Below are positions 2 to 45,728 of a stretch of 64,000 nucleotides of DNA, piece by piece. The first letter of the stretch is position 1. Every line of letters starts with the position of its first letter. The DNA is taken from assembly GCA_963169765.1 (NCBI GenBank), contig CAUJEN010000073.1:10932-74931 (forward strand). The letters are read 5' to 3'. Both the position numbers and the translations under genes were made by a program. This DNA comes from Vulcanimicrobiota bacterium. Its GTDB lineage: Bacteria; Vulcanimicrobiota; Xenobia; Xenobiales; QWHO01. The notes under the pieces were generated by a model. The model did not search any database and was not told where the DNA came from. It saw nothing but the letters and a program-made list of their open reading frames with translations.

Positions 2-2560
2 CGTCAGGTGCAGACCGTGGAGGGCCTGGGAGGCAACCATCCCCTGCAGCGGGCATTTGACGCTTGTGGAGCAGCCCAGTGCGGCTTCTGCACCCCCGGC
101 ATGCTGATGAGCGCGGCGGCCTTTCTCGAGAGCAGCCCCGATGAGGTCACCCGGGAGACCATCTCCGAGGCGCTCTCGGGCAATCTGTGCCGCTGTACCG
201 GCTACACCAAGATCCTCGAGGCGGTGGAGCAGGCCTGGCAGGAGATGCAGGGGCAGGCTCCCGGCCAGGCCGGCAGGCCGGGTATCGGGCAGCGCCACCG
301 CCGGGTGGATGGCTACGAGCGCGTCACCGGAGCGACTCAGTTCACCGACGACCTCTGCCTGCCCCGCATGCTGCACTGCAAGATCCTGCGCTCTCCCCAC
401 GCTCACGCCCGCATCCTGGCGGTGGACGCGAGCCGGGCCCTGGCCCTGGAGGGCGTCCTGGCGGTGGTGACCGGCCAGGACTTCCCGATCTCCTACGGCA
501 TCCTGCCCTGGACGCGAGACGAGCACGCCCTCTGTCTGGAGAAGGCCCGTTACGTGGGAGACGCGGTGGCAGCCGTGGCGGCGGTGGACGAAGAGACGGC
601 CAACCTCGCGCTCGACCTCGTCAAGGTGGACTACGAGGTCCTGCCCGCGGTCCTCGACCCTCGCCAGGCGCTGGAGAGCACCGCGGTGCGGATCCACGAT
701 AAGGGCAACCTGTCCAAGGAGGTGGAGCTCGAGTTCGGGGAGGTGGCCTCGTGCCTGGCCCGGGCCGACCTGGTGGTGGAGGGCGATTACTCCTTTCATG
801 GCAGCACCCACGCTCCCCTCGAGCCCCACTGCGCCCTGGCCCACTATGATGCCGGCGGGCTGCTGACCGTCTGGTCGGCCACCCAGGTGCCCCACTACCT
901 GCACCGAGAGCTGGCCCGCGTGCTGGAGCAGCCAACCAACCGGATCAGAGTGATCGCCACCAACGTGGGAGGCGCGTTCGGGGGCAAGAGTGAGCCCTTT
1001 GATCTGGAGTTCGTTGTGGCCCGGCTGTCCATGCTCACCGGCCGGCCTGTGAAGTGTCTCTACACCCGCGAAGAGGTCTTCCTGGCCCACCGCGGACGGC
1101 ATCCGTGCCAGATGACCATGCGGCTGGGCTTGAGCCAGGACGGCCGCATCCTGGGCCTGGACGCGCGCAGCCTGCTGGATGGCGGGGCATACTCTTCCTT
1201 CGGCCTGGTCACCACCTATTACACCGGGCAGTTGCTGGGCTCTCCCTACAAGATGGAGAGCTACCGTTTCCACTCTACCCGGGTCTATACCAACAAGCCC
1301 GCCTGCGGGCCCAAGCGCGGGCACGGCTCGGTGCAGCCGCGCTTTGCCCTGGAGGTCCAGCTCGACAAGGCGGCCCGGGCCCTGGGCCTGGACCCCATCG
1401 AGCTGCGCCGGCGCAACTTCATTGGGGCCGATGCCCGCACGATCAACGAGTTCCAGCTCGGCTCCAACGGCTTTCTGGAGTGCCTCGAGCGCGTGGAGCA
1501 GGCCTCGCTCTGGAAGCAGCGCTATGGCAAGCTTCCTCCCGGCCGCGGGCTGGGGGTGGCCGGCAGCACCTACATCTCCGGCACCAACTATTGCATCTAC
1601 CCCAGCGAGCTGCCCCAGTCCGGGGTGCAGATCTGTCTTGATCGTTCCGGTCGCGTGCGCCTGTTCGCGGGCGTCTCGGATATCGGGCAGGGAGCGGCCA
1701 CGGTGCTGGCCGTGGTGGCCTGCCAGGAGCTGGGGGTAGAGTTGGAGGACGTGCGCGTGGTCACGGCCGATACCGATCTGTGCCCGGTCGACCTGGGAGC
1801 CTATTCCTCCAGGGTCACCCTGATGGCCGGCCAGGCCTGCTTGATGGCCGCTCGTGACCTGGGCAGCAAGGTGCGCCGGGTGGTGGCTGAGCGGTGGCAA
1901 TGCTCGCCGGCCCAGGTGGTGCTGGCCGGCCGGCGAGCCCAGCGCCTGGACGACCCGGATACCTTCATGAGCATCCAGGAGGCCTTCGTGCTGGCCGAGG
2001 AGGCACTGGGAACGATGGGCAGCGTGGGTCACTACCAGAGCCCCCGCAGCGGGGTTCATGGAGACTATCGCGGGGCTACCATCGGGGCCTCCCCGGCCTA
2101 CTCCTACACAGCCCACGTGGCCGAGGTCGAGGTGGACCGGGAAACCGGTCAGGTCCACCTGCTCCAGATCTGGGCCGCCCACGACTGCGGCAAAGCGCTC
2201 TCGCCGGTCCTGGTGGAAGGGCAGATCGAAGGCTCGGTCTACATGGGGGCGGCGGAAGCGCTGTTCGAGCACCACCAGGTGGACGAGCGGGGTCTTCTGA
2301 CCGCGAGCTCGCTGCTCGATTACCGCCTGCCCACCTCGCTGGACGTGCCCGCGATCCAGGCTCTGATCGTGGAGCACCCCGATCCGCGTGGCCCCTACGG
2401 GGCTAAGGAGGCGGGCGAAGGGCCCCTGCACCCGGCCCTGCCGGCCATCGCCAACGCTGTATTTGATGCCGTGGGGGTGCGCATCGACCAGCTTCCGATC
2501 ACTCCCGAGAAGGTCCTGGCAGCGCTCAAGGGCCAGTCCCAGGAGGCCGCGCGGTGCTGA
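2..2560 (+). CDS. Xanthine dehydrogenase/aerobic CO dehydrogenase family protein, C-terminal part of [2Fe-2S] domain fused to molybdopterin-binding large subunit; 5' end truncated by window edge
   Basis: Translation shows second 2Fe-2S cluster motif (CGFCTPGM ... CRCTGY) continuing without stop into a Mo-cofactor binding XDH/CoxL-like domain (GQRHRRVDGYERVTGATQFTDD ...). The ORF runs to the window edge. Confidence 0.85.
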   Translation, partial: RQVQTVEGLGGNHPLQRAFDACGAAQCGFCTPGMLMSAAAFLESSPDEVTRETISEALSGNLCRCTGYTKILEAVEQAWQEMQGQAPGQAGRPGIGQRHRRVDGYERVTGATQFTDDLCLPRMLHCKILRSPHAHARILAVDASRALALEGVLAVVTGQDFPISYGILPWTRDEHALCLEKARYVGDAVAAVAAVDEETANLALDLVKVDYEVLPAVLDPRQALESTAVRIHDKGNLSKEVELEFGEVASCLARADLVVEGDYSFHGSTHAPLEPHCALAHYDAGGLLTVWSATQVPHYLHRELARVLEQPTNRIRVIATNVGGAFGGKSEPFDLEFVVARLSMLTGRPVKCLYTREEVFLAHRGRHPCQMTMRLGLSQDGRILGLDARSLLDGGAYSSFGLVTTYYTGQLLGSPYKMESYRFHSTRVYTNKPACGPKRGHGSVQPRFALEVQLDKAARALGLDPIELRRRNFIGADARTINEFQLGSNGFLECLERVEQASLWKQRYGKLPPGRGLGVAGSTYISGTNYCIYPSELPQSGVQICLDRSGRVRLFAGVSDIGQGAATVLAVVACQELGVELEDVRVVTADTDLCPVDLGAYSSRVTLMAGQACLMAARDLGSKVRRVVAERWQCSPAQVVLAGRRAQRLDDPDTFMSIQEAFVLAEEALGTMGSVGHYQSPRSGVHGDYRGATIGASPAYSYTAHVAEVEVDRETGQVHLLQIWAAHDCGKALSPVLVEGQIEGSVYMGAAEALFEHHQVDERGLLTASSLLDYRLPTSLDVPAIQALIVEHPDPRGPYGAKEAGEGPLHPALPAIANAVFDAVGVRIDQLPITPEKVLAALKGQSQEAARC

Positions 2561-6148: not shown

Positions 6149-7375
6149 ATGCAGGTCGGCATCATCGGGGCCGGAATGGCTGGCTGCGCGGCCGCCCGCC
6201 GCCTCGTCCAGGGCGGCGCCCAGGTAACCGTCCTGGAGGCGCGCGACCGACCCGGCGGGCGCATCTGGACCGACCGGAGCCTGGGCTGCCCCATCGACCT
6301 GGGGGCTGCCTGGTTGCATGGAGCCGAGGCCAATCCCCTGAGCGCCCGCGCGCGCAGCCTGGAGCACCTCGACAGCGACGTGCTCAACAACCTCTTCTTC
6401 AACCCTCTGGGCGAGCCCCTCACGATGGAGCTGAGTCGCCAGGTGCAGGAAGCGGGGCTGGATCTGGCTGCCCAGGCCATGGACCTGGCCTCGCGCAGTC
6501 CCGAGCCGCTTTCCATGGCCGAGGCCATGGGCCGGGTCTTTCTCGAGTCGGGTGACCCGGGGCCCTGGCGGGCCCGTGTGCGCAGCCTGCCCATCGCCGA
6601 CATGACCGCCTTCGCGGCCCGCCCGGACGCGCTCTCGGGGCCGCCCCTGGAAGGCCTGGATCGATTCCTCCCTGGGGGTCTGGATCAGATGCTGGATTGG
6701 AGATCGTGCAACCTGCTCCTGTCCACCCCTGTCCACCGGCTGACCTGGACAGACTCGAAGGTCGAGGCGGCCACCTCGCGGGGCTCGTTCCGCTTCGACC
6801 GGGTCATCCTGACTCTGCCTCTGGGAGTTCTTCAGGGCGAGCGGGTCCAGTTCGACCCTCCCCTGCCCGACTGGAAGAAAGACGCCATCCGGGCCCTGGG
6901 TACCGAGGTTCTCAACAAGGTTGCCCTGCGCTTCGATCAGGCGGTCTGGCCACTCGAGCCCGACTTCCTCAGCCTCAACCAGCCGGACGGGGAGACGGAC
7001 GTCTTCTTCAACGGCCACAAGGCCCTGGGACAGCCGGTGCTGGTAGGCTTCGTGGTGGGCCAGCGAGCCAGAGCCTTCGAGTCAGCGGGGAGCGAGAAGA
7101 CCGTGGAGTGCCAGCTTGCAAGCCTGCGCCGCGCCTTCCCCGGGCTGGGCCGACCGCAGGCCGTGCTGGTCAGCTCGTGGGGCTCCGATCCCTACAGCCT
7201 GGGCGCGTACTGCCTGAGACCCCCGGGCGTCGAAGGCGAAGCGCACGACCTCCTGGCCAGGCCGGTCGGGCCCCTGGGCTTTGCCGGCGAGGCGACCAGC
7301 AGAGCCTATCCGGGCACGCTGCTGGGGGCCTGGTTGAGCGGTCGGCGCGAAGCCGATCGGCTCGTTTCGCCCTGA
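6149..7375 (+). CDS. Flavin-containing amine oxidase (polyamine/monoamine oxidase family)
   Basis: N-terminal Rossmann motif GIIGAGMAGCAAA ... VLEARDRPGGRIWT. C-terminal GEATS motif typical of amine oxidases. Confidence 0.85.
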   Translation: MQVGIIGAGMAGCAAARRLVQGGAQVTVLEARDRPGGRIWTDRSLGCPIDLGAAWLHGAEANPLSARARSLEHLDSDVLNNLFFNPLGEPLTMELSRQVQEAGLDLAAQAMDLASRSPEPLSMAEAMGRVFLESGDPGPWRARVRSLPIADMTAFAARPDALSGPPLEGLDRFLPGGLDQMLDWRSCNLLLSTPVHRLTWTDSKVEAATSRGSFRFDRVILTLPLGVLQGERVQFDPPLPDWKKDAIRALGTEVLNKVALRFDQAVWPLEPDFLSLNQPDGETDVFFNGHKALGQPVLVGFVVGQRARAFESAGSEKTVECQLASLRRAFPGLGRPQAVLVSSWGSDPYSLGAYCLRPPGVEGEAHDLLARPVGPLGFAGEATSRAYPGTLLGAWLSGRREADRLVSP

Positions 7376-13611: not shown

Positions 13612-14193
13612 ATGGCCCGGCCGACCTGCCCGAGTTGCCACCGGGCCCTGCCGGTCTGCCTTTGCCATCTAGTGAAGTCCTTCACGGCTGCGGCAGAAAT
13701 CCTGATCTTGCGCCATCCCCGCGAGCAGCGCTCGCGTCTGGGGGTGAACACGGCCCAGCTGGTGGCCCTGGCGGTAAAGAACTGTCGGCTACTCGACGGG
13801 CTCGACTTCGAGCGCGATCTGAAGCTGCGAAGCTGGCTGACCGGAGCCTGCCTGGTCTATCCCGGGCGCCTGGCAGTCGACCTGGCCAGCCAGACCGAAG
13901 CCCCTCGCCGCCTGGTCTTCCTGGACGGGAGCTGGCGCGGGGCGGCCCACATCCTGCGCCGCAACGACCTGCTGGCCCGCCTGCCCCGCCTCACCTTCCA
14001 GGCCCCCGCCTCGCGCTACCTGTTTCGCCGGCAGCCCCGTCCCGAGTGCACCTCCACCGCCGAGGCCGTCTACTGGTGCCTGGAAAAGATGCCAGGGAGA
14101 AGCTCGCAAGAGCACGCCAATCTGCTCGAGCTGCTCGACTACCTGGTGGCCTGCCAGGCTCGCGCCTCGGCGGCGACGAATCCTGAAGGGTGA
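13612..14193 (+). CDS. DTW domain protein (tRNA-uridine aminocarboxypropyltransferase family)
   Basis: N-terminal CPSCHRALPVCLC Cys cluster and the diagnostic LVFLDGSWRGAAHI (D-G-S-W) motif. Confidence 0.75.
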   Translation: MARPTCPSCHRALPVCLCHLVKSFTAAAEILILRHPREQRSRLGVNTAQLVALAVKNCRLLDGLDFERDLKLRSWLTGACLVYPGRLAVDLASQTEAPRRLVFLDGSWRGAAHILRRNDLLARLPRLTFQAPASRYLFRRQPRPECTSTAEAVYWCLEKMPGRSSQEHANLLELLDYLVACQARASAATNPEG

Positions 14194-14948
14194 AATCCAC
14201 CAGCGGAAAGATCGCCCGCGCCCTGGCCCACCAGACCCAGAAGGTGGTGCCCAGAACACGCGAGCGCCGCTTTCACTCCCTCTTGTTCATCCTGGCCACC
14301 GTGCCGCTCTTCGTGTTGACCTGGTTCGTGCCGCGTCATGCCCTGGTGGCCGCCCACGCGGCTGCCGCCCGGGGCGACCTCGAGCGGCTCGAGCGGCTCT
14401 ACAGCAAGAATCCCGAGTCACTCTCCCACGAGGACGTGGGAGGAGCCAGGGCGCTGCATTATGCCGCCCTGAACCACCAGCTCGAGGCGGCCCGCTTTCT
14501 CGTCGACCACGGGGTGGAGGTGGACGCCACCAACCTGCAGGGCCAGTCAGCCCTGTTCTATGCCGTCAGCGCCAACAACCCCGATATGGTCGATTTCCTG
14601 GTCGCCTCCGGGGCCGATCCGGATCGCATCGACCGGCACGGATTGACCCCGCTCTACCTGGCGGTGGCCCGGGGATTTCCCGGTATGGTCGAGAGCCTGG
14701 CCGGCTATCGGGTCAGGACCGAGGTCGAGCACGCCTCGGGTCAGTGCGTTTTGCACGAGGCCGTGCTGCGCGGCAACTCCTCCATCGTGCGATTGTTGCT
14801 GCGCATGGGGGCCGACAAGAACCGACCCGATCGGCGCGGAGAGACCCCGCTGCAAATCGCTCAGCGCTTGAAGCTGCTGGAGGTCGAGGGGGTGTTGCGC
14901 GAGAGCCCCACCGTCGGCGCAGGAACCGTACGCTCGAAGCGGAACTAA
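14190..14948 (+). CDS. Ankyrin-repeat protein
   Basis: Several 33-residue ANK repeats (GARALHYAALNHQLEAARFLVDHGVEVDATN ...). Start overlaps the upstream stop. Confidence 0.7.
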   Translation: MKSTSGKIARALAHQTQKVVPRTRERRFHSLLFILATVPLFVLTWFVPRHALVAAHAAAARGDLERLERLYSKNPESLSHEDVGGARALHYAALNHQLEAARFLVDHGVEVDATNLQGQSALFYAVSANNPDMVDFLVASGADPDRIDRHGLTPLYLAVARGFPGMVESLAGYRVRTEVEHASGQCVLHEAVLRGNSSIVRLLLRMGADKNRPDRRGETPLQIAQRLKLLEVEGVLRESPTVGAGTVRSKRN

Positions 14949-14998
14949 CGACCGCCCCTGCGGCACCTGCATCTAGCTGACGGAGTTCGAGAATACCT

Positions 14999-15904
14999 AT
15001 GAAACCCTACTTCCTGTGCGCTCTGCATCCGAGTCGACCGCTGTCTTTGCGCGGCACTTCCGAGGGCGACGTGGGCTGGGTCGATTGGAACGAGCGCAAG
15101 GTGGTGTCCCACTGGAGCACCGGCCAGAAAGGTCTGTCGGCCGTGGCAATGGAGCCCTCTACCCAGCGCTGCGCCACGCTGGGCACGGGCCTGGTGAAAG
15201 TGTGGGAAGGCCAGCGCGAGCTGGGCGCTTATCCCATCGAGGGCACCAACCTGGCCTTCGCCGGGGGCCTCTTGTGGGTGGGCCGACCGGGCTCGCTGGT
15301 GGGGCTCGACCCGACAACCGGCGAGGTGCGCCACGAGCTCTTGGAGGAGAAGTTCTCCAACCTGAGCCTGTTTGCCGTGCACGAGAGCACGCTGGCCTGG
15401 TCGGGCATGGGTGCCGCTGACGTGCTGGTGGTGGACGCCTCCACCGGCACCATCAAGAACCGCGTCGAGTCGGTGGGCGAGATCTTTGCGCTGGCCATCC
15501 ATCCCGACGGACAGCGCCTGGCCGCCAGCCTGACCGGCAGCGGCAACACCGTCATGCACGCGGTCCAGATCTGGAAGCTCGAGTCCGGCCTGCATGAGCG
15601 GAAATTCTCGGTCCCCTTCCAGGCCATGTCCCTGGCCATCAGCCCGGACGGCTGCTGGGTCGTCACCGGCGACTCCATGGGAGCCCAGTTGTGGGACTAC
15701 GCCCGCGGTGGGCCCGAGCGGCGCTATGCCATGCGTGAGACGGCCGCCGTCGAGGGCCTGGGCCGCATCGAGCGTCCCAGGGCCGGTCTGGTCACCGCCG
15801 TTCGCTTTGACGGTGAGCAACTGATCACCGACGGTCAGGAGCTGGCCGTGTGGGATCTGACCGGCGGCGAGCGGTTATGGGCGCTGGAGGTCACCGGTGT
15901 TTGA
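14999..15904 (+). CDS. WD40/PQQ-like beta-propeller repeat protein
   Basis: Repeated about 40-aa units ending in W-D/E-like dipeptides (VKVWEG, VQIWKLESG, AQLWDY, LAVWDL). Confidence 0.55.
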   Translation: MKPYFLCALHPSRPLSLRGTSEGDVGWVDWNERKVVSHWSTGQKGLSAVAMEPSTQRCATLGTGLVKVWEGQRELGAYPIEGTNLAFAGGLLWVGRPGSLVGLDPTTGEVRHELLEEKFSNLSLFAVHESTLAWSGMGAADVLVVDASTGTIKNRVESVGEIFALAIHPDGQRLAASLTGSGNTVMHAVQIWKLESGLHERKFSVPFQAMSLAISPDGCWVVTGDSMGAQLWDYARGGPERRYAMRETAAVEGLGRIERPRAGLVTAVRFDGEQLITDGQELAVWDLTGGERLWALEVTGV

Positions 15905-16766: not shown

Positions 16767-16813
16767 GGCTCAGCCGGAGGACAGGGGCCGACCGCTCCCG
16801 AAATCAACACAGC

Positions 16814-17890
16814 ATGCGACCCATGCTGGTGGGGTTATGCGTGCTGCTCGCACTGGCGGCAGCGCGAGCCGGCGAGCCTCCTCCCAAAGGGCCGCCCTGG
16901 CTGCGTGAGCTCGGGGAGGCGCAGTCCGATGCGCTCAAGCACCGACGTCCGCTTTTCATCTACTTTACGAAGACCCATTGACCCCACTGCGTCCCCATCG
17001 AGAAGCAGTTGCTTCCGAGCCCAGATCTCGCCCCGGTCTACGACCGGGTCACCTGGGTTTACGTGAATCGCGACTTCAGCGGAACTCCCTCCGACCGCGC
17101 TGCTGAACGGATCATGCTGCGGTTTGGCCTGTCGAGCTATCCCCATCTGCTCCTGGTCGATCCGGGTGACTTCACGGTGCTGGAGGAAATCGGGCGGAGC
17201 AAACCGCAGCTCCTCTCAGCTCTCCAATCTCAGCGACAACTGGCCTGGACAAAGGCGGCCGTGGATCGCTACCAGCGGGCCGAGCGGAAGGCCATTCGAC
17301 TCGAGCAAGCGCAAGACGCAAGCCAGGCCCTGGCCGCGCTCGAGGACGAGGACCTGGTGGTGCGCACGCGCGCTGTCGAGATCGCGGCGAAGAAACGTCC
17401 AGAGGCGCTGGCCTCCCGAGCGGCCAGACTGCTTGAAGACCCGTCCGACGTGATTCGCTTCCAGGTGCTGGCGGTGCTCGCAGAGCATGGCAATGAGAAG
17501 CTGGCCCGTCCGATCGAGCGCCTGTTGACCAGCCCGCCGAGCGGGAGCAAGAACCCCAACGTCTTGAGATCGTATGCGGCTGCGGCCCTGGCCGCCTGCG
17601 GGGACGCTCGGTCGATCGACGCGCTGGCCGGCCTGGCCACCTCGGGTGATGCCAACAACATCCTGACCGCAGAGGCCGTGAAAGGACTGGTCGGAATCGG
17701 TCAACGTCATCCCCAGACCCGTTCGCGGGTGGTGGCCCTCCTGGTCCAGGCCTACCCGGCTCCAGGTCGAACCGGCGAACGCCTGGCACGCCGCGTGCAC
17801 GAGGGTCTGGCTCAGTTGACCGGAAAGAAACTGCCGTTTCCGCAGCCTTACGATGCGGCTGCCCGCGAGCGCCTGCAGAAGTCCTGGTAA
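16814..17890 (+). CDS. Putative secreted selenoprotein: thioredoxin-like domain with UxxC redox motif (Sec encoded by TGA 16979-16981) fused to HEAT-repeat domain
   Basis: ATG 16814 opens a signal peptide (MRPMLVGLCVLLALAAARA). The frame reaches ...PLFIYFTKTH-TGA-PHCVP... and continues uninterrupted, in the same frame, into the supplied ORF 17009-17890. The TGA sits exactly where a thioredoxin/DsbA CxxC first Cys lies (beta-strand FIYF then U-P-H-C). The C-terminal half has PBS-lyase/HEAT-like repeats (DEDLVVRTRAVEIAA ... DPSDVIRFQVLAVLAEHG). Confidence 0.55.
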
Positions 17891-37508: not shown

Positions 37509-40184
37509 GTGGGGCGAGGGCGTTATCTGGCCATCAGCGCGCTGTTTCTGTTTTCCGGAGCAGCCGGCCTGATCTTGCAGCTCATCTGGGCCCGGCGCCT
37601 GGCCCTTGTCTTCGGCAGCACGGTCCACTCAACGTCCACCACCGCCTCCGCCTTTCTGCTGGGTCTGGGTGTAGGTGCCTACCTCGCCGGGCGCTACCTC
37701 ACCCGGCGCCCCAACCTGCTGGGCATCTTCGGTCTGTTGGAGCTGGGGGTGGGCGCCTCGGGCCTGGCGGTGACCTGGCTCATCCCCCAGATCGTGCCCC
37801 TGGCCGTTCAGCTGACCCGTACCCACCCCGACGAGGCGGTTTTCGGAGGACTTCGCTTCGCCATCGTCTTCGTCATGCTGATCGTGCCCTGCACCCTCAT
37901 GGGGGCCACCCTGCCCGTGCTGACCCACTTCCTGGTCTCTCAGGAGGGTCTCTTCGGGCCCATCCTGGCCAGGCTGTACACGGTGAACACGCTGGGCGGG
38001 GCCATCGGAGTCATGCTGGCCGACTTTGCCCTGGTGGGCCGGCTGGGGGTCTTCCAGACGGCGGTGGTGGCCGCTCTGTTCGACATGGCTGTTGGTCTTC
38101 TGGCCCTGCTGGCCTCCAGCCGGTTCCCTGGCCCCGCTGAGCAACCCGACGAGTCGCCCTCCGGCCGAGTGCCGCTCTCGCTCTCCTTGCTGCTGTTCGT
38201 CATCGGCTTCTGCGGGCTGGCGCTGGAGATTCTCTGGACGCGGCTGCTGGTGTTCGTGAACGGCACCGACATTCACGCCTTCTCGCTGGTGCTGGCGGTC
38301 TTTCTGGTGGGCCTGGTCGGGGGTGGATTCCTGGCCGGGCGCTACCTGCGCGCTCGATCCGAGGAGAGGGTTCTGGCCGCCCTGCTGGTGGCTCTGGGCT
38401 GGCTCAGCCTGGCGAGCCTGCTGACGGTCGCTTTCATGAGAAATCTCAGCCTGGCTCTGATCGGAATGCTTGGCATCGATGGCTCGCGGGTGGTGGTCAA
38501 CGCCCTGCTGGTGCTGCCCTGCGCGCTGGTGCTCGGGGCCCTGTTTCCGCTGATCAACTCGGCCCTCTACCGCCAGCTTCAATCGGCCGGCCCGGCGGTG
38601 GGACAGGCCTACGTCTGGAACACGGCCGGCAACATGCTGGGCTCATTGATGGCGGGATTCGTGCTCATCCCTCTGCTGGGGCTGCAGCGGAGCCTGTTGC
38701 TGGTGGCCCTGCTGGCAGGCATCGCGGGCCTTTGCTGGCAGCGCCGTCCGGCCCTCTGGGCGGCGGTGATCGCCCTGGCCTTCACCAGCCTGTTGCTGCC
38801 CGGGGATTACCTGCTGCGCCAGCTTTATGCCAGGGATTATCCCAACATCCTCTACCACGCCGAGGATCATCTCAGCTCGGTGGCCCTGGTCAAGCAGTGG
38901 AGCGAGCTCGAGCTCGACTCCAATCCCAACCTCATCGTGGACGGCTTCACGATGATGCACAACGACCTGCGCAGCAAACGCTACGCCACCATGCTGGGGC
39001 TGGTGCCGTGCACGCTGCATCCGGAGCCCAGAGAGGTTCTGGTGATCTGTCTGGGGCTGGCCAACACCCTGTCGGCCGTCACCCGCAACCCGCGGACCGA
39101 GCGAGTGGATTGCGTGGAGCTCTCGCCCAAGGTCAATGAGGCCATCCGGCTTTTGCCCTACGCCCGGGAAACGCTGGAAAGCGACAAGGTCAAGGTCCAC
39201 CTGGGGGACGGCCGCAACTACCTTCTGACCACCGACCGGCTCTATGACGTGATCACTGCCGAGCCGCCGCCACCTCGCAACGCCGGCATCGTGAGCCTCT
39301 ATTCGCGGGAATACTACCAGTTGTGTCGCAGCCGTCTCAAGCCGGGCGGGCTGGTGGCTCACTGGCTGCCCATCGGCCTGATGACCCGGTTCCAGGCCCG
39401 GGCAACCCTGCGCGCCTTTCAGGACGTCTTTCCTTACACCTACCTGTTTCAAGGCGAGGATCTGCACATCGTCATGCTGGGCTCGGATCGCGCTCTGGAC
39501 CTGCTCTCGGTGGACCTGCCTGGGGAGGCCTGGCTGGAGGAGTTGGGCCTGGCGCCAGGAGCGCTCTTCGCGGCCGCCTACCTGCGCGGGCCCGAGGAGG
39601 TGCGCAGGTATGTGGCCAACACCCCACCCCTGACCGACGATCACCCCTACCTCCAGTATGACCTGGGCCTGGAGGAGCCCGACTGGGAATTCTTCTTCTC
39701 CGGCTCACTGCCGTCTGAGCTCTGGACTCCCGAGACCAGGAAGGCCCAGGTGGCCCTGCGCACGCTGCCCCTGGTGGTGTGGACCCGTAGCGGCAACCCG
39801 CTGCTCGATCGCCTGGTGCAGCTCGAGGCCGCCCGGGCCGTGCTGAAGGGGTTTCCCGACAACGCTTATTTTCGGATGACCACGCGCACCAGTGAGCAGC
39901 ACCAGGCTCACTACCAGGGCCTGCCTGGAGCGGACGGGGCCTACAACCGCGCCCGCGTAGCCTTCAGTACGGGCGACTTCCCCACCGCGCTGCGCGAGAT
40001 CGACAGTCTGAAGGTGCCCGACAACCCCGAGCTGGCTCTCTTCTTGCAGCTGTTTCGAGCCCTGGTACTGACCGAGGCTGGCCGGCTGGAGGAGGCGGCG
40101 GCCCTCTACCAGGCCGCCTCCAGCCCGGACCCGCGCCTGGACGGCTACATCAAGAGCAAGAGAGGCTCGAGCAAGGCACCCTGA
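37509..40184 (+). CDS. Fused polytopic-membrane (MFS-like)/spermidine-synthase-like protein with C-terminal TPR repeats, paralog 2
   Basis: GTG start. N-terminal TM region alignable to paralog 1 (LFSGAAGLILQLIWARRLALVFGSTV...). Spermidine-synthase core (DVITAEPPPP ... SLYSREYY). TPR-like C-terminus. Confidence 0.75.
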   Translation: MGRGRYLAISALFLFSGAAGLILQLIWARRLALVFGSTVHSTSTTASAFLLGLGVGAYLAGRYLTRRPNLLGIFGLLELGVGASGLAVTWLIPQIVPLAVQLTRTHPDEAVFGGLRFAIVFVMLIVPCTLMGATLPVLTHFLVSQEGLFGPILARLYTVNTLGGAIGVMLADFALVGRLGVFQTAVVAALFDMAVGLLALLASSRFPGPAEQPDESPSGRVPLSLSLLLFVIGFCGLALEILWTRLLVFVNGTDIHAFSLVLAVFLVGLVGGGFLAGRYLRARSEERVLAALLVALGWLSLASLLTVAFMRNLSLALIGMLGIDGSRVVVNALLVLPCALVLGALFPLINSALYRQLQSAGPAVGQAYVWNTAGNMLGSLMAGFVLIPLLGLQRSLLLVALLAGIAGLCWQRRPALWAAVIALAFTSLLLPGDYLLRQLYARDYPNILYHAEDHLSSVALVKQWSELELDSNPNLIVDGFTMMHNDLRSKRYATMLGLVPCTLHPEPREVLVICLGLANTLSAVTRNPRTERVDCVELSPKVNEAIRLLPYARETLESDKVKVHLGDGRNYLLTTDRLYDVITAEPPPPRNAGIVSLYSREYYQLCRSRLKPGGLVAHWLPIGLMTRFQARATLRAFQDVFPYTYLFQGEDLHIVMLGSDRALDLLSVDLPGEAWLEELGLAPGALFAAAYLRGPEEVRRYVANTPPLTDDHPYLQYDLGLEEPDWEFFFSGSLPSELWTPETRKAQVALRTLPLVVWTRSGNPLLDRLVQLEAARAVLKGFPDNAYFRMTTRTSEQHQAHYQGLPGADGAYNRARVAFSTGDFPTALREIDSLKVPDNPELALFLQLFRALVLTEAGRLEEAAALYQAASSPDPRLDGYIKSKRGSSKAP

Positions 40185-41599: not shown

Positions 41600-43165
41600 A
41601 TGCTGAAATTCAAAGTCACTTACGCCACCTTGACGGCTGATAATACCGAGTTGCACGCCCAGCTCGACGAAGCCTTTGCCCGCGTCAAGGGCCAGTTCGG
41701 CAAGGAGTTTCCCCTGCTCATCAACGGCCAGCAGAAGACCGGCCAGGAGACCATCTCCAGCTTCAGTCCGGCAGATTCCGGCGTGCTTCTCGGCAAAGTG
41801 CACGCCGCCACCGAGGCTGACGTGAAAGAGGCCGTGGCTGCCGCCAGAGCGGCCTACCCCGCCTGGCGCCGGACCCCCTGGCAGGAGCGCTGCCGATTGC
41901 TCGAGCGAGCCGCCGAGATCATCCGCGAGCGCTCCTACGAGCTGACCGCGTGGCTGGTTTTCGAGAACGGCAAGAACCGGGTCGAGGCTCTGGGCGAGAT
42001 CGAGGAGACGGCTGACCTCTACGATTACTACGCCCAGCAGATGCGGGCCAACGACGGGTTCGTGCGCGAGATGAGCAAGCTCTCGCCGGCCGACAGCAAC
42101 ACCAGCGTGCTGCGCCCCTACGGCGTGTGGGCCGTGGTAGCTCCCTTCAACTTCCCATACGCCCTGCTGGGCGCGCCCATGGCGGCCGCGCTGGTGGCGG
42201 GCAACACGGTGGTGGGCAAGCCCTCCTCCGAGACCCCCATCTCGGGCGCCCTGCTCGCCGAGATCTTCCACCAGGCCGGCTTCCCGGCCGGGGTGGTCAA
42301 CCTGGTGGCAGGCGGCGGCCGGGTGGTGGGCAAGACCCTGGTCGAGCACCCGGACGTGGACGGCGTGACCTTCACCGGGTCCTATGACGTTGGCTTCAAG
42401 CAACTGTTCAAGAGCTTCAGCCAGCGCTATCCCAAGCCGTGCATCGCCGAGATGGGCGGCAAGAACCCGGCCGTGATCACCCAGCACGCCGATCTCGACC
42501 GGGCCGTGCAGGGCGTCTTCCGCTCGGCCTTCGGGATGGGCGGCCAGAAGTGCTCGGCCTGCTCGCGCGTCTTCGTGCACGAGGAGGTGGCCGACAAGTT
42601 CCTGGCCGCGCTCAAGGAGATGGCCGAGAAGGCGGTGATCGGCGATCCCAGCGACAAAAACGTCTTCTTGGGACCGGTGGGCCTGAGATCCGGCTATGAG
42701 GACTACAAACGCTTCGCCGAGCTGGCCCGCAAGGACGGCACGGTGGTCACCGGCGCCGAGGTCATCAGCGAGGGACCGCTGTCGAAGGGCTACTTCGTCA
42801 AGCCCACCATCGTGACCGACCTGCCCTCCGACCACGAGCTGGTCAAGACCGAGCTCTTCTTGCCCATCGTGGTGGTAGAGCGGGTCAAGAGCCTGGACGA
42901 GGGCCTGCGCAGAGCCAATGATACCGACCTGGGCCTGACGGCAGGGTTCTTCAGCCAGCGTCAAGACGAGGTGGACGAGTTCCTTGACCGCATCGAAGCC
43001 GGCGTGGTCTACGTCAATCGCGCCGCCGGAGCCACTACCGGCGCCTGGCCGGGCGTGCAGCCGTTCGGGGGCTGGAAGGGGTCGGGTTCCACCGGCAAGA
43101 ATATCGGCGGGCTTTACACCGTGCAGTGCTATCTGCGCGAGCAGAGCCGCACCATCACCTCCTAG
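41600..43165 (+). CDS. L-glutamate gamma-semialdehyde (1-pyrroline-5-carboxylate) dehydrogenase, aldehyde dehydrogenase family
   Basis: N-terminus MLKFKVTYATLTADN and length (521 aa) match stand-alone RocA/PruA-type P5CDH. ALDH catalytic motifs EMGGKNP and FGMGGQKCSACSR. Confidence 0.85.
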   Translation: MLKFKVTYATLTADNTELHAQLDEAFARVKGQFGKEFPLLINGQQKTGQETISSFSPADSGVLLGKVHAATEADVKEAVAAARAAYPAWRRTPWQERCRLLERAAEIIRERSYELTAWLVFENGKNRVEALGEIEETADLYDYYAQQMRANDGFVREMSKLSPADSNTSVLRPYGVWAVVAPFNFPYALLGAPMAAALVAGNTVVGKPSSETPISGALLAEIFHQAGFPAGVVNLVAGGGRVVGKTLVEHPDVDGVTFTGSYDVGFKQLFKSFSQRYPKPCIAEMGGKNPAVITQHADLDRAVQGVFRSAFGMGGQKCSACSRVFVHEEVADKFLAALKEMAEKAVIGDPSDKNVFLGPVGLRSGYEDYKRFAELARKDGTVVTGAEVISEGPLSKGYFVKPTIVTDLPSDHELVKTELFLPIVVVERVKSLDEGLRRANDTDLGLTAGFFSQRQDEVDEFLDRIEAGVVYVNRAAGATTGAWPGVQPFGGWKGSGSTGKNIGGLYTVQCYLREQSRTITS

Positions 43166-43176
43166 AAAGCTGCACG

Positions 43177-44457
43177 ATGATGTCTGAAGTCATGGATCTC
43201 GCAACCCATCCCATCCTGCTGCGCACCGAGCTGCCCGGACCTCTGGCAAAGGCGGCCATCGAGCGCGACAAGCAGCACATGTCGCCCTCGCTCATCCACT
43301 GCTATCCGCTCTACGTCAAGAAGGCGGCCGGCTGCATGGTGGAGGACCTGGACGGCAACATCCTGCTCGACTGTCAGGCGGGGGTGGCCACCGCCTCGAC
43401 CGGCCACTGCCATCCGGCCGTGGCGGCTGCCGTCAAGGAGCAGGTGGACACCCTGATCCACATCTGCGGCACCGACTTCTTCTACCCCGGCTATGGGGCG
43501 CTCTGCGACCGGCTTGACCGGCTCGCTCCCAAGGTGGACAACGGCTGGCAGGTATTCTTGTCCAACTCGGGCACCGAGTCGGTGGAGGCGGCCATCAAGC
43601 TGACCCGCTACCACACGGGCCGACACCACATGATCGCCTTCCGGGGCGGGTTCCACGGACGCTCCATGGGCTCGCTCTCGCTCACGGCCAGCAAAACCAA
43701 GTATCGCAAGGGCTTCGGGCCGCTCATCCCGGGCATTCACCACGTGGAATATGGTGACATCGAAGCCATCGAGAAGGGGCTGTTCCGCTCCACCCTGCCG
43801 GCCAACGAGGTGGCTGCCATCGTCGTGGAGCCGATCCTGGGCGAGGGCGGCTACATCGTGCCAGACAAGAGCTTCTTGCTCGAGCTGCGCGAGATGTGCG
43901 ACGAGCACGGCATCCTGCTGGTGTTCGACGAGGTGCAGGCGGGCATGGGACGCACCGGCAAGATGTTCGCCTGCGAGCACTTCGCCGTCACGCCCGATGT
44001 GATCTTGCTGGCCAAGGGCATCGCCTCGGGCTTCCCGCTGGGAGCCATGATGGCCCGCAAGGAGTTCATGACCTGGCCGGCCGGATCGCACGGCTCTACC
44101 TGCGGCGGCAACCCGGTCTGCATCGCCGCCGCCATGGCCACTCTGGACCTGTTGGAGGGCTCGCTCGTCAAGAACGCCGCCGAGGTGGGCGCTTTCTTTA
44201 AGAATGCTCTGCACGACAGACTGACCTCCAATCCCATCGTTAAGGACGTGCGCGGACTGGGGCTGATGCTGGGGGTGGAGTTTGATACCCACGAGCATTC
44301 CGAGCGGGTCGCCAACCGCTGTTACGAGCGGGGCCTGCTGGTTCTCGAGTGCGGGGCCAGCACCATCCGCATCTCCCCGCCTCTGGTCATCACCCGCGGG
44401 CAGGCCCAGGTGGCCGCCGACCTCTTCGCCCAGGTGTGCCAGGAGGTGGCCGCCTGA
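43177..44457 (+). CDS. Class-III (omega) aminotransferase, PLP-dependent (GABA/ornithine aminotransferase-like)
   Basis: ATGATG start. SNSGTESVEAAIKL and the DEVQAGMGRTGKMFA PLP-lysine region. Confidence 0.85.
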   Translation: MMSEVMDLATHPILLRTELPGPLAKAAIERDKQHMSPSLIHCYPLYVKKAAGCMVEDLDGNILLDCQAGVATASTGHCHPAVAAAVKEQVDTLIHICGTDFFYPGYGALCDRLDRLAPKVDNGWQVFLSNSGTESVEAAIKLTRYHTGRHHMIAFRGGFHGRSMGSLSLTASKTKYRKGFGPLIPGIHHVEYGDIEAIEKGLFRSTLPANEVAAIVVEPILGEGGYIVPDKSFLLELREMCDEHGILLVFDEVQAGMGRTGKMFACEHFAVTPDVILLAKGIASGFPLGAMMARKEFMTWPAGSHGSTCGGNPVCIAAAMATLDLLEGSLVKNAAEVGAFFKNALHDRLTSNPIVKDVRGLGLMLGVEFDTHEHSERVANRCYERGLLVLECGASTIRISPPLVITRGQAQVAADLFAQVCQEVAA

Positions 44458-45728
44458 GCGAGCTGGTCACCCGCCAGTCCGAGCGGGTCTTCTTCACCTG
44501 GACGGCCCAGAAGAAGGCGGCTCCGCTCGAGATCATCGGCGGCGAAGGGGCCCGCTTCGAGACGGCCGACGGGGCCTGGTGGTGGGACCTGGGCAGCACG
44601 ACCTGGAACGCCAATCTGGGCCACGGACATCCGGCCATGCGCGCGGCTCTGACCGAGGCAGCCTCGCGCGGCCTGGTGGCCGGGCCCGCCGCCGTCTTCC
44701 CGGACAAAGCCCGGGCAGGCGAGCTGCTGGCCGAGGTGTCCCCGCCCGGATTGAGCAAGAGCTTTCTCTGCCTGTCGGGGGCCGAGGCCAACGAGAATGC
44801 CATCAAGATCGCCCGGCTCGTGACCGGGCGCTCCAAAGTGGTCAGCCGCACTCGCAGCTACCATGGCGCGACCCTGGCCGCCCTCTCCATCTCGGGCGAC
44901 CCGCGGCGCGAGCCCTTCGAGCCGGGCTATCCCGGGGTGGTGCGCATGACCGATCCTTACTGCTACCGCTGCAGCTTTGGCCTGGCCAGCGACACGTGCC
45001 AGCGCGAGTGTGCTCAGGATCTGGAGCGAGCGCTGCTCGAGGCCGGCCCGGAGACGGTGGCGGCGGTGATTGTCGAAGGCGTGACCGGGGCCAACGGGGT
45101 CTTCCCCGCGCCTCCCGGCTATTTTACCCGCCTGCGCGAGCTGTGCGACCGCTACGGAGTGCTCTTGATCGCCGACGAGGTGCTGTCTGGCTTCGGCCGC
45201 ACGGGCAAGTGGTTTGCAGTGGACCACGAGCCGGTCGTGCCCGACCTTCTGACCTGCGCCAAGGGGCTCACCGGGGGTTACGCGCCCGGAGGCGCGGTGG
45301 TGGTGCACGAGCGCATCGCCAGGCATTTCGACGAGGAGGTGCTCTTGTGCGGGCTGACCGCCTATGCCCACCCCCTCACCTGCACCGCCATCCGGGCCGC
45401 CATCGGGACCTACCGGGCCGACAACTTGATCGAGCGGGCCGCGCAACTTGGCCAGTGGCTGGGAGGGCGTCTTGCGAGCCTGCTGCAGCGGCCCTGCGTC
45501 GGTGACGTGCGCGGCCTGGGCCTCCTGTGGGCGGTCGAGCTGGTGCGCCCCGGCACCCGAGAGCCGCTGGACGCGACCGGGGTCTACAACGCTTTGAAAA
45601 AGCGCCGGGTGTATACCCACCGGCGCGACAACATGATCTACCTGGCGCCTCCGCTGGTGATCGGCCAGGAGCAGCTCGACGAGGTCGTCGGGCTGCTCGA
45701 GCAGGCGCTGGACGAAGGGACAGCATGA
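44436..45728 (+). CDS. Class-III aminotransferase, second paralog (beta-alanine/taurine-pyruvate transaminase-like)
   Basis: GHGHP ... SGAEANENAIKIAR ... ADEVLSGFGRTGKWFA motifs. Start uncertain (GTG 44436 or CTG 44454) and overlaps the upstream stop. Confidence 0.8.
   Translation: MPGGGRLSELVTRQSERVFFTWTAQKKAAPLEIIGGEGARFETADGAWWWDLGSTTWNANLGHGHPAMRAALTEAASRGLVAGPAAVFPDKARAGELLAEVSPPGLSKSFLCLSGAEANENAIKIARLVTGRSKVVSRTRSYHGATLAALSISGDPRREPFEPGYPGVVRMTDPYCYRCSFGLASDTCQRECAQDLERALLEAGPETVAAVIVEGVTGANGVFPAPPGYFTRLRELCDRYGVLLIADEVLSGFGRTGKWFAVDHEPVVPDLLTCAKGLTGGYAPGGAVVVHERIARHFDEEVLLCGLTAYAHPLTCTAIRAAIGTYRADNLIERAAQLGQWLGGRLASLLQRPCVGDVRGLGLLWAVELVRPGTREPLDATGVYNALKKRRVYTHRRDNMIYLAPPLVIGQEQLDEVVGLLEQALDEGTA

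Follow-up and report, generated by a model that had tools for sequence, protein, structure and literature searches.

The subject of this work is a gene on the plus strand of a 64,000-nucleotide stretch of contig CAUJEN010000073.1 (assembly GCA_963169765.1, from a Vulcanimicrobiota bacterium), which we call the window. A single reading frame runs there from the ATG at 16814 to the TAA at 17888-17890, and its sole interruption is a TGA at 16979-16981, which is codon 56. The TGA occupies the first position of a redox motif encoded at 16979-16990, directly after a beta-strand, FIYF, and the translation across the site reads ...RPLFIYFTKTH*PHCVPIEKQ... We are highly confident, from the comparison of sequences, that 16814-17890 is a genuine gene in which this TGA is decoded as selenocysteine (Sec, or U in the one-letter code), giving a U-P-H-C motif. 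Apart from the TGA the frame is open throughout, and the complete coding sequence holds 358 codons, the Sec codon included, plus the TAA. The initial annotation of this DNA had described the ATG, the TGA and a frame left open through the listed open reading frame (ORF) at 17009-17890, and the sequence is exactly as it claimed. All features of the gene given below lie on the same strand.

Public records and gene callers present this gene differently. The TTG (17009-17011) from which the listed ORF 17009-17890 begins is in fact a leucine codon inside the loop of an RNA hairpin, and database entry P0001, which begins MLPSPDL, takes the same codon as its start. This false start is the source of the truncated annotation of the gene as a 293-residue 'HEAT repeat protein'. 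The names in use for its relatives are 'HEAT repeat domain-containing protein' and 'hypothetical protein', with 'thioredoxin family protein' for the forms that carry cysteine at the site, and all of them come from metagenome-assembled genomes (MAGs) of Planctomycetota; MAGs of Phycisphaerae, Brocadiaceae and Gemmataceae are among those with Cys forms. At the other end of the gene, a perfect 7-bp inverted repeat, CAGCATG-cgacc-CATGCTG, lies at 16810-16828 and spans both candidate starts, ATG 16814 and ATG 16823; it was picked up on the minus strand by the terminator scan, and could occlude the start site or be due to chance. Nothing else informative came out of the scan for promoters and terminators around the gene.

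A first protein search found one full-length homolog, P0002, and four 'truncated' ones, P0001 and P0003-P0005. P0002 is a cysteine protein of 368 residues, 49% identical to the window protein, with which it aligns end to end, and it reads ...FIYFTKTHCPHCVPIEK... at the site aligned with the TGA. In every truncated entry the DNA 5' of the start stays in frame through a TGA at the identical codon, and the part before that TGA codes for a signal peptide and then a GPPW segment, both conserved. A further 40 loci came from scanning collections of genomes and metagenomes. The initial annotation had proposed aligning homologs at this codon, and the alignment bears its reading out: TGA stands in 36 distinct sequences and TGC or TGT in 7, with the protein conserved on both sides. 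The TGA forms extend down to about 39% identity (a range of 39-50%) and come from independent metagenomes and MAGs (Logan SRA assemblies, JGI, ENA and NCBI MAGs); their consensus around the motif is T-K-T-[HYDV]-U-P-H-C-V. The TGA is shared by L005 and L006, near-identical contigs that stem from two further sequencing runs, and by 33 more distinct homologous loci. Scan patterns covering the Sec position had been back-translated with cysteine, and any bias is therefore against TGA forms.

Two profile searches used the region downstream of the TGA and were thus blind to the difference between Sec and Cys. The first returned 94 clusters (50% identity level) at E <= 1e-30, most of which begin no more than 3 residues from the position following the motif; roughly a dozen clusters span the full length, with CPHC, CTPC or CPDC, or with the motif lost. 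The second returned 63 matches, about 50 of them truncated vs 11 full length. Judged from these sequences, the family is dominated by Sec, at about 80% of both loci (36 vs 7) and database clusters (about 50 vs 11). It is also heterogeneous in length. A longer Sec-form subfamily (loci L036, L039 and L041; proteins P0035, P0041, P0051 and P0066) has the same UGA and the same RNA element, and in its three loci 378-391 residues follow the Sec codon vs about 305 in the main group, the extra sequence apparently separating the thioredoxin domain from the HEAT solenoid. Three full-length relatives, P0031, P0091 and P0116, keep the HEAT domain and have no CxxC motif (e.g. FTKESPKFYQ), which suggests that the role of the HEAT scaffold may be independent of redox chemistry in some lineages.

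The hairpin that holds the miscalled start has the features of a bacterial selenocysteine insertion sequence (bSECIS). It occupies 16998-17018 and is built of a 3-bp stem (16998-17000 with 17016-17018), a bulged A at 17001, a 5-bp stem (17002-17006 with 17011-17015) and an AGUU loop at 17007-17010. The loop lies 25 nucleotides after the UGA, and the minimum free energy is -9.3 kcal/mol, equal to the family median. The pattern of the hairpin core, gaagc-agtt-gcttc at 17002-17015, occurs once in the window vs 0.09 occurrences expected by chance. Like the window element, the SECIS of E. coli fdhF, which serves as the bacterial reference, follows shortly after the UGA within the coding sequence and consists of a small apical helix that is interrupted by one bulged nucleotide and capped by a tetraloop whose second and third positions are G-U; it differs in its bulge (U, where the window element has A), in its loop (GGUC instead of AGUU) and in the distance to the loop (about 18 nucleotides instead of 25).

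When the 48 nucleotides from the TGA are aligned across the 36 Sec forms, this architecture is invariant. The loop is AGUU in 35 of the 36, the sole variant being AGGU in L041, the bulged A is present in all 36, and across 35 distinct sequences 95% of the upper helix is paired. Covariation is seen at two pairs: at columns 25/36 every sequence is paired, 21 of them by A-U and 14 by G-C, and columns 21/39 hold G-C in 16 and C-G in 14, with 5 unpaired. As a control, sliding the 3' partners by 1-3 columns lowers pairing from 86% to 39-48%. RNAalifold also proposed a lower helix, which reaches only 74% pairing and on which we do not rely. The pair that alternates between A-U and G-C couples a non-synonymous change (Lys AAG or Glu GAG) with a synonymous one (Leu CTT or CTC), and such a coupled change would be hard to explain without a constraint on the RNA. 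The codons of the stem-loop tell the same story: third-position entropy is 0 bits at the GAG, RAG, CAG and TTG codons vs 1.2-1.6 bits in most surrounding ones, and two leucine codons that are rare in the window, TTG (8.4% of Leu codons) and CTT (5.5%), are used at the stem-loop in 34 and 20 of 35 sequences. Six Cys forms are long enough to be compared: of the 8 pairs they retain just 1-6, they lack the AGUU loop, and their leucine codon is CTG. One Cys form stands apart: L046 (2960-2992, plus strand), with TGT, retains the Sec-type downstream sequence GAGAAGCAGTTG up to the end of its contig, where the other Cys forms have lost it, and it may be a recent Sec-to-Cys conversion.

The initial annotation had suggested folding the sequence downstream of 16981 in search of a SECIS-like structure, and the stem-loop at 16998-17018 is what such folding gives; its description of the hairpin 17002-17015 as not canonical does not hold. 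The consensus for bSECIS elements in the 2026 catalogue of prokaryotic selenoproteins is a loop of 3-9 nucleotides, a stem of 4-16 bp, 16-37 nucleotides between UGA and loop and a minimum free energy of at most -7.5 kcal/mol, with a G at loop position 1 or 2 and in most cases a G or U next to it on the 3' side (PMC13188914). The window element agrees with it on all four counts, with its 4-nucleotide AGUU loop, 5+3 bp, 25 nucleotides and -9.3 kcal/mol.

The protein encoded across the TGA opens with a predicted signal peptide for the Sec translocon (the secretion machinery of that name), encoded at 16814-16870 and recognised from its hydrophobic N-terminus and an A-x-A site agreeing with the -3,-1 rule. 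The sequence is MRPMLVGLCVLLALAAARA, followed after the putative cleavage site by GEPPPKGPPW. Every homolog for which upstream sequence is available shows a signal peptide and then A-G-S-E-T-P-P-x-G-P-P-W, of which GEPPP is the variant in the window. Residues 29-117 (16898-17164) form a Thioredoxin_7 domain of DsbD-gamma-like type that extends across the TGA; it matches Pfam PF13899 over profile positions 2-83 of 83 with 29.6 bits vs a cutoff of 27, a narrow margin (U was replaced by C for the Pfam scores of this protein). Within it, an invariant S-Y-P at residues 108-110 (17135-17143) is probably the cis-proline loop of the thioredoxin fold, which would face the redox motif. A HEAT-like alpha-solenoid follows at 17330-17887, where HEAT_2 (PF13646) matches residues 173-242 (17330-17539) with 37.2 bits vs a cutoff of 27.7 and helical repeats run on to the C-terminus.

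An AlphaFold2 model, made for a Cys homolog and not for the window protein (pLDDT 77.6, pTM 0.75, the predicted local distance difference test and template modelling scores), shows an N-terminal helix, a thioredoxin fold of order beta-alpha-beta-alpha-beta-beta-alpha, a long linker helix and a solenoid (residues 172-367) made of helices throughout, at a pLDDT of about 90. The motif follows beta-1 and S-Y-P precedes beta-3. In Foldseek searches of the PDB, the C-terminal (gamma) domains of DsbD (2fwf, 2fwe, 1uc7 and 6dnu) were among the best matches of the thioredoxin part, with TM-scores of 0.62-0.68 normalised to the target, root-mean-square deviations of 3.4-4.0 A, identities of 13-17% and E about 1e-2; the Thermus thioredoxin 2lst was similar, and the Thermus protein was the only one found by sequence search of the PDB (E = 0.009). 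We take the CDD model cd02953 to be that of DsbD gamma. The solenoid matched alphaRep, the CpcE/F lyase and symplekin with weak E-values, and these matches have no bearing on lyase activity. The initial annotation had read the gene as one for an exported protein of thioredoxin fold, joined to HEAT repeats and with Sec opening its UxxC motif, and this is borne out by the Sec/Cys pairs, the conserved and covarying SECIS and the signal peptide present in all homologs. Its term 'DsbA-like' fared less well: the P-H dipeptide of the motif agrees with it, but the domain is a Thioredoxin_7 whose nearest folds are those of DsbD gamma, with neither a DsbA match in Pfam nor the helical insert.

How else could the TGA be understood? 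If it were a real stop, the locus would yield a fragment of 55 residues with the signal peptide and, from TTG 17009 on, a HEAT-repeat protein of its own, as gene callers and public records (P0001, P0003-P0005) have it, and TGA is indeed a normal stop codon in the genes of the window. Yet such a stop would cut the thioredoxin domain through its active site and leave the HEAT part with no signal peptide ahead of it; the Cys homologs are continuous, and the supposed TTG start sits in a conserved RNA hairpin loop. The initial annotation had itself raised the case of a separate N-terminal gene with a genuine stop, but in every homolog the upstream 55 codons are conserved as protein and in frame with the downstream part, and we consider this explanation highly improbable. 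It had also raised a sequencing error, and a misread or misassembled TGC or TGT is conceivable a priori, but on no other ground; the same TGA occurs in 36 distinct sequences from independent projects, which already refutes it, and we give it a negligible chance. Sequencing error, a pseudogene and two separate genes are excluded because of these comparative data, the copies in L005 and L006 with their TGA included. A global reassignment of the codon is likewise ruled out: TGA is the main stop codon, ending 30 of the 40 confidently placed genes of the window, and UGA is therefore not globally reassigned.

The remaining doubts concern the machinery for Sec, and here several results weigh against decoding with selenocysteine. 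ARAGORN found neither tRNA-Sec nor any other tRNA in the window, and SelA, SelB and SelD were absent, by Pfam, from about 34 of its roughly 59 genes, all those of the size of SelA, SelB or SelD included. A tRNA scan of 24 related fetched loci gave no tRNA-Sec, no fetched homologous locus contained selA, selB or selD, and neither the window nor about 349 kb of fetched loci held any other credible selenoprotein gene; in the same sequences, coding-like composition flanking a TGA next to a Cys was seen only for the thioredoxin-HEAT family. Rfam gave no match in the window. One might speculate from the lack of this machinery in the window that the UGA is recoded into something other than Sec, by hairpin-stimulated read-through with a near-cognate tRNA for Trp or Cys or by another recoding mechanism, and downstream structures can in general stimulate read-through. 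But tryptophan at this site would abolish the redox chemistry, the site corresponds to the nucleophilic Cys in CxxC and is paired with Cys in orthologs, a specific signature of Sec, and the loop sequence, spacing and energy of the hairpin all conform to the bSECIS consensus of SelB type. We regard such recoding as very unlikely. The same absence would fit a decaying relic, that is, a lineage that lost its Sec machinery and in which the gene now terminates early as a pseudogene of the host genome, and loss of the Sec trait is common in bacteria (PMC1794560). However, the window copy has an intact frame, its signal peptide and all family-invariant residues, with no frameshifts or extra stops; its SECIS is perfect, down to the compensatory A-U pair, and the identical TGA and SECIS are found in the near-identical L005 and L006 from two other samples. 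A relic seems no more credible than a real stop, and we rate both as highly improbable. From the purifying selection on UGA and SECIS, and from the planctomycete literature, we infer that the host genome probably encodes the Sec machinery: some Planctomycetes have selA/B/C/D, and Trx-like selenoprotein candidates of this group have been annotated as two genes (PMC4807772). Two NCBI MAGs, GCA_013328875.1 and GCA_021404945.1, encode a protein identical to one from the window.

Taken overall, the best explanation, and in our view a very likely one, is that 16814-17890 is one gene encoding an exported selenoprotein. Once a ribosome has come to the UGA at 16979, SelB carrying Sec-tRNA(Sec) would bind the stem-loop 16998-17018 of the mRNA, and selenocysteine would be put in instead of termination taking place. 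After removal of the signal peptide the product would have about 339 residues and would be delivered by the Sec translocon to the periplasm or the cell exterior. There its Thioredoxin_7/DsbD-gamma-like domain would exchange disulfides with clients through the selenenylsulfide or selenol-thiol couple of U-P-H-C, placed opposite the cis-Pro loop, and the C-terminal HEAT solenoid would most likely be the scaffold that binds the client or partner. The most likely activity is that of an exported selenol/thiol-disulfide oxidoreductase. For this specific functional picture, an exported redox protein with a HEAT scaffold for clients, we see even chances. Points against it are that the Pfam scores are just above threshold, that all structural matches have E >= 1e-3, that the active-site loop of the homolog model has pLDDT < 50, and that no conserved neighbouring gene across 22 loci hints at a partner, the neighbour clusters being antisense shadow ORFs or pairs of closely related contigs.

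As to the direction of the reaction, the DsbA-type P-H dipeptide would suggest an oxidant, and the DsbD-gamma-like fold would suggest a reductant or isomerase, at which a sub-threshold match in a Cys-form subclade also hints. The proteins of this subclade (535-580 residues; L010:9404-11036, plus strand; P0019, P0050 and P0064) have an extra N-terminal domain of about 230 residues after a signal peptide of their own, with a motif of the type Q-A-C-D-D-K-S-C-F-P-P. DsbD_N (PF11412) matches the region of this motif below threshold (18.1 and 13.6 bits vs a cutoff of 25), and the L010 sequence gives no match. If the match is real, DsbD-alpha-like and DsbD-gamma-like domains would be paired in one soluble protein.

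Thioredoxin-fold selenoproteins with a UxxC motif and a SECIS in the coding region are a well-established kind, and the question is where this family stands among them. Membership in any curated NCBIfam selenoprotein family is ruled out: the sole signal among these models was NF041199, 'Trx7/PDZ domain-containing (seleno)protein', with 14.5 bits vs a cutoff of 300 over about 40 residues around the motif. NF041199 is nevertheless the closest analogue in design, with a Thioredoxin_7-type Sec domain and a CxxC-type motif fused to a protein-binding module. It differs in combining CxxU with PDZ where the window family has UxxC with a HEAT solenoid; the window protein has no PDZ match, and the NF041199 family is entered in Table 1 of the 2026 catalogue with Sec at the second motif position (PMC13188914).

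The DsbD gamma domain itself, among the best solved structural matches of our thioredoxin domain, is a Cys protein tethered to a membrane electron-transfer domain, whereas the family described here is soluble, fused to HEAT repeats and carries Sec; the sub-threshold DsbD_N match in the Cys subclade echoes the alpha/gamma pairing of DsbD. To DsbA-like selenoproteins of form 1 (PF01323, UxxC) and E. coli DsbA (CPHC) the likeness lies in the P-H dipeptide of DsbA, in Sec standing for the first Cys and in export. The DsbA family is ruled out all the same, since there is no PF01323 match at E <= 0.1, DsbA chains of the PDB appear only at E = 0.36 and the model has no helical insertion. The 'Thiol:disulfide interchange protein' selenoproteins (PF13098) and the GOS 'Trx-like 2' group (cd02953) are UxxC proteins with Sec at the N-terminal nucleophilic position (PMC13188914, PMC2398784). 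Like the window family they have a domain of DsbD-gamma type or of the Thioredoxin_2/7 clan and, as is predicted for that family, a role in extracytoplasmic thiol-disulfide exchange, and Cys homologs of them exist; no HEAT fusion is described for them. On the window protein PF13098 stays sub-threshold, with 22.1 bits vs a cutoff of 27, although UxxC is present. The GOS group is moreover dominated by Cys, with 22 Sec vs 2,098 Cys forms (PMC2398784), whereas ours is dominated by Sec.

The fusion of a Sec-thioredoxin domain to HEAT repeats had been called undescribed in the initial annotation. NCBIfam, the catalogue, the literature and the names of public records are all consistent with this within a check that was not exhaustive: HEAT, PF13646 and PF13899 are absent from the first part of the catalogue's Table 1, and by term from the rest of that table, which lists 119 prokaryotic families (PMC13188914), and a literature search, not exhaustive, gave no paper combining 'HEAT repeat' with selenocysteine terms. 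A member of the family is possibly among the 'hypothetical' or 'thioredoxin' candidates of Table S9 of PMC4807772. We conclude that both the family and its domain architecture are new, within a known kind of selenoprotein and with an ordinary decoding mechanism.

If this is true, some 50 or more Planctomycetota clusters now named 'HEAT repeat' or 'hypothetical' would be truncated selenoproteins with a false TTG start in the SECIS loop, and correcting them would add one family to the prokaryotic selenoproteome. Two unusual traits would mark the family, the predominance of Sec over Cys and the coupling of an exported Sec-thioredoxin with a solenoid that binds proteins, and because of them it would offer a useful handle on the redox biology of the Planctomycetota envelope. 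Its SECIS, clean and supported by covariation, should be of use for predictors of SECIS elements and selenoproteins in this phylum; our understanding of Sec decoding is left unchanged. A more ambitious proposal would see here an uncatalogued, exported and Sec-dominant family present throughout the Planctomycetota, of which the window gene would be the founding example and in which a DsbD-gamma-like Sec-thioredoxin module stays tethered for good to a HEAT solenoid that selects a dedicated client, and thus a selenium-dependent extracytoplasmic redox pathway new to bacteria. We find this rather doubtful and offer it tentatively.

The other genes of the window include a few groups worth recording. 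Just upstream of an aldose 1-epimerase and the selenoprotein gene, three consecutive genes at 13612-15904 (plus strand) encode a DTW-domain protein, an ankyrin-repeat protein and a WD40-like protein; the arrangement is also found in two NCBI MAG contigs and in one Logan contig, all three carrying the adjacent HI0933-like gene. At the edge of the window, 8-2560 (plus strand), lies a molybdenum hydroxylase of the xanthine dehydrogenase/aldehyde oxidase family (Fer2_2, Ald_Xan_dh_C, MoCoBD_1/2), whose ORF is listed from base 8 and whose true start may be beyond the edge. Some enzymes of this class use a labile selenium cofactor. Further downstream, 41600-45728 (plus strand) holds an aldehyde dehydrogenase and, after it, a pair of class-III aminotransferase ORFs whose listed coordinates overlap (43126-44457 and 44349-45728), which may together be a cluster for the catabolism of amines or polyamines. 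An amine oxidase (6149-7375) and a protein with a spermidine-synthase domain (37509-40184) are also encoded in the window.

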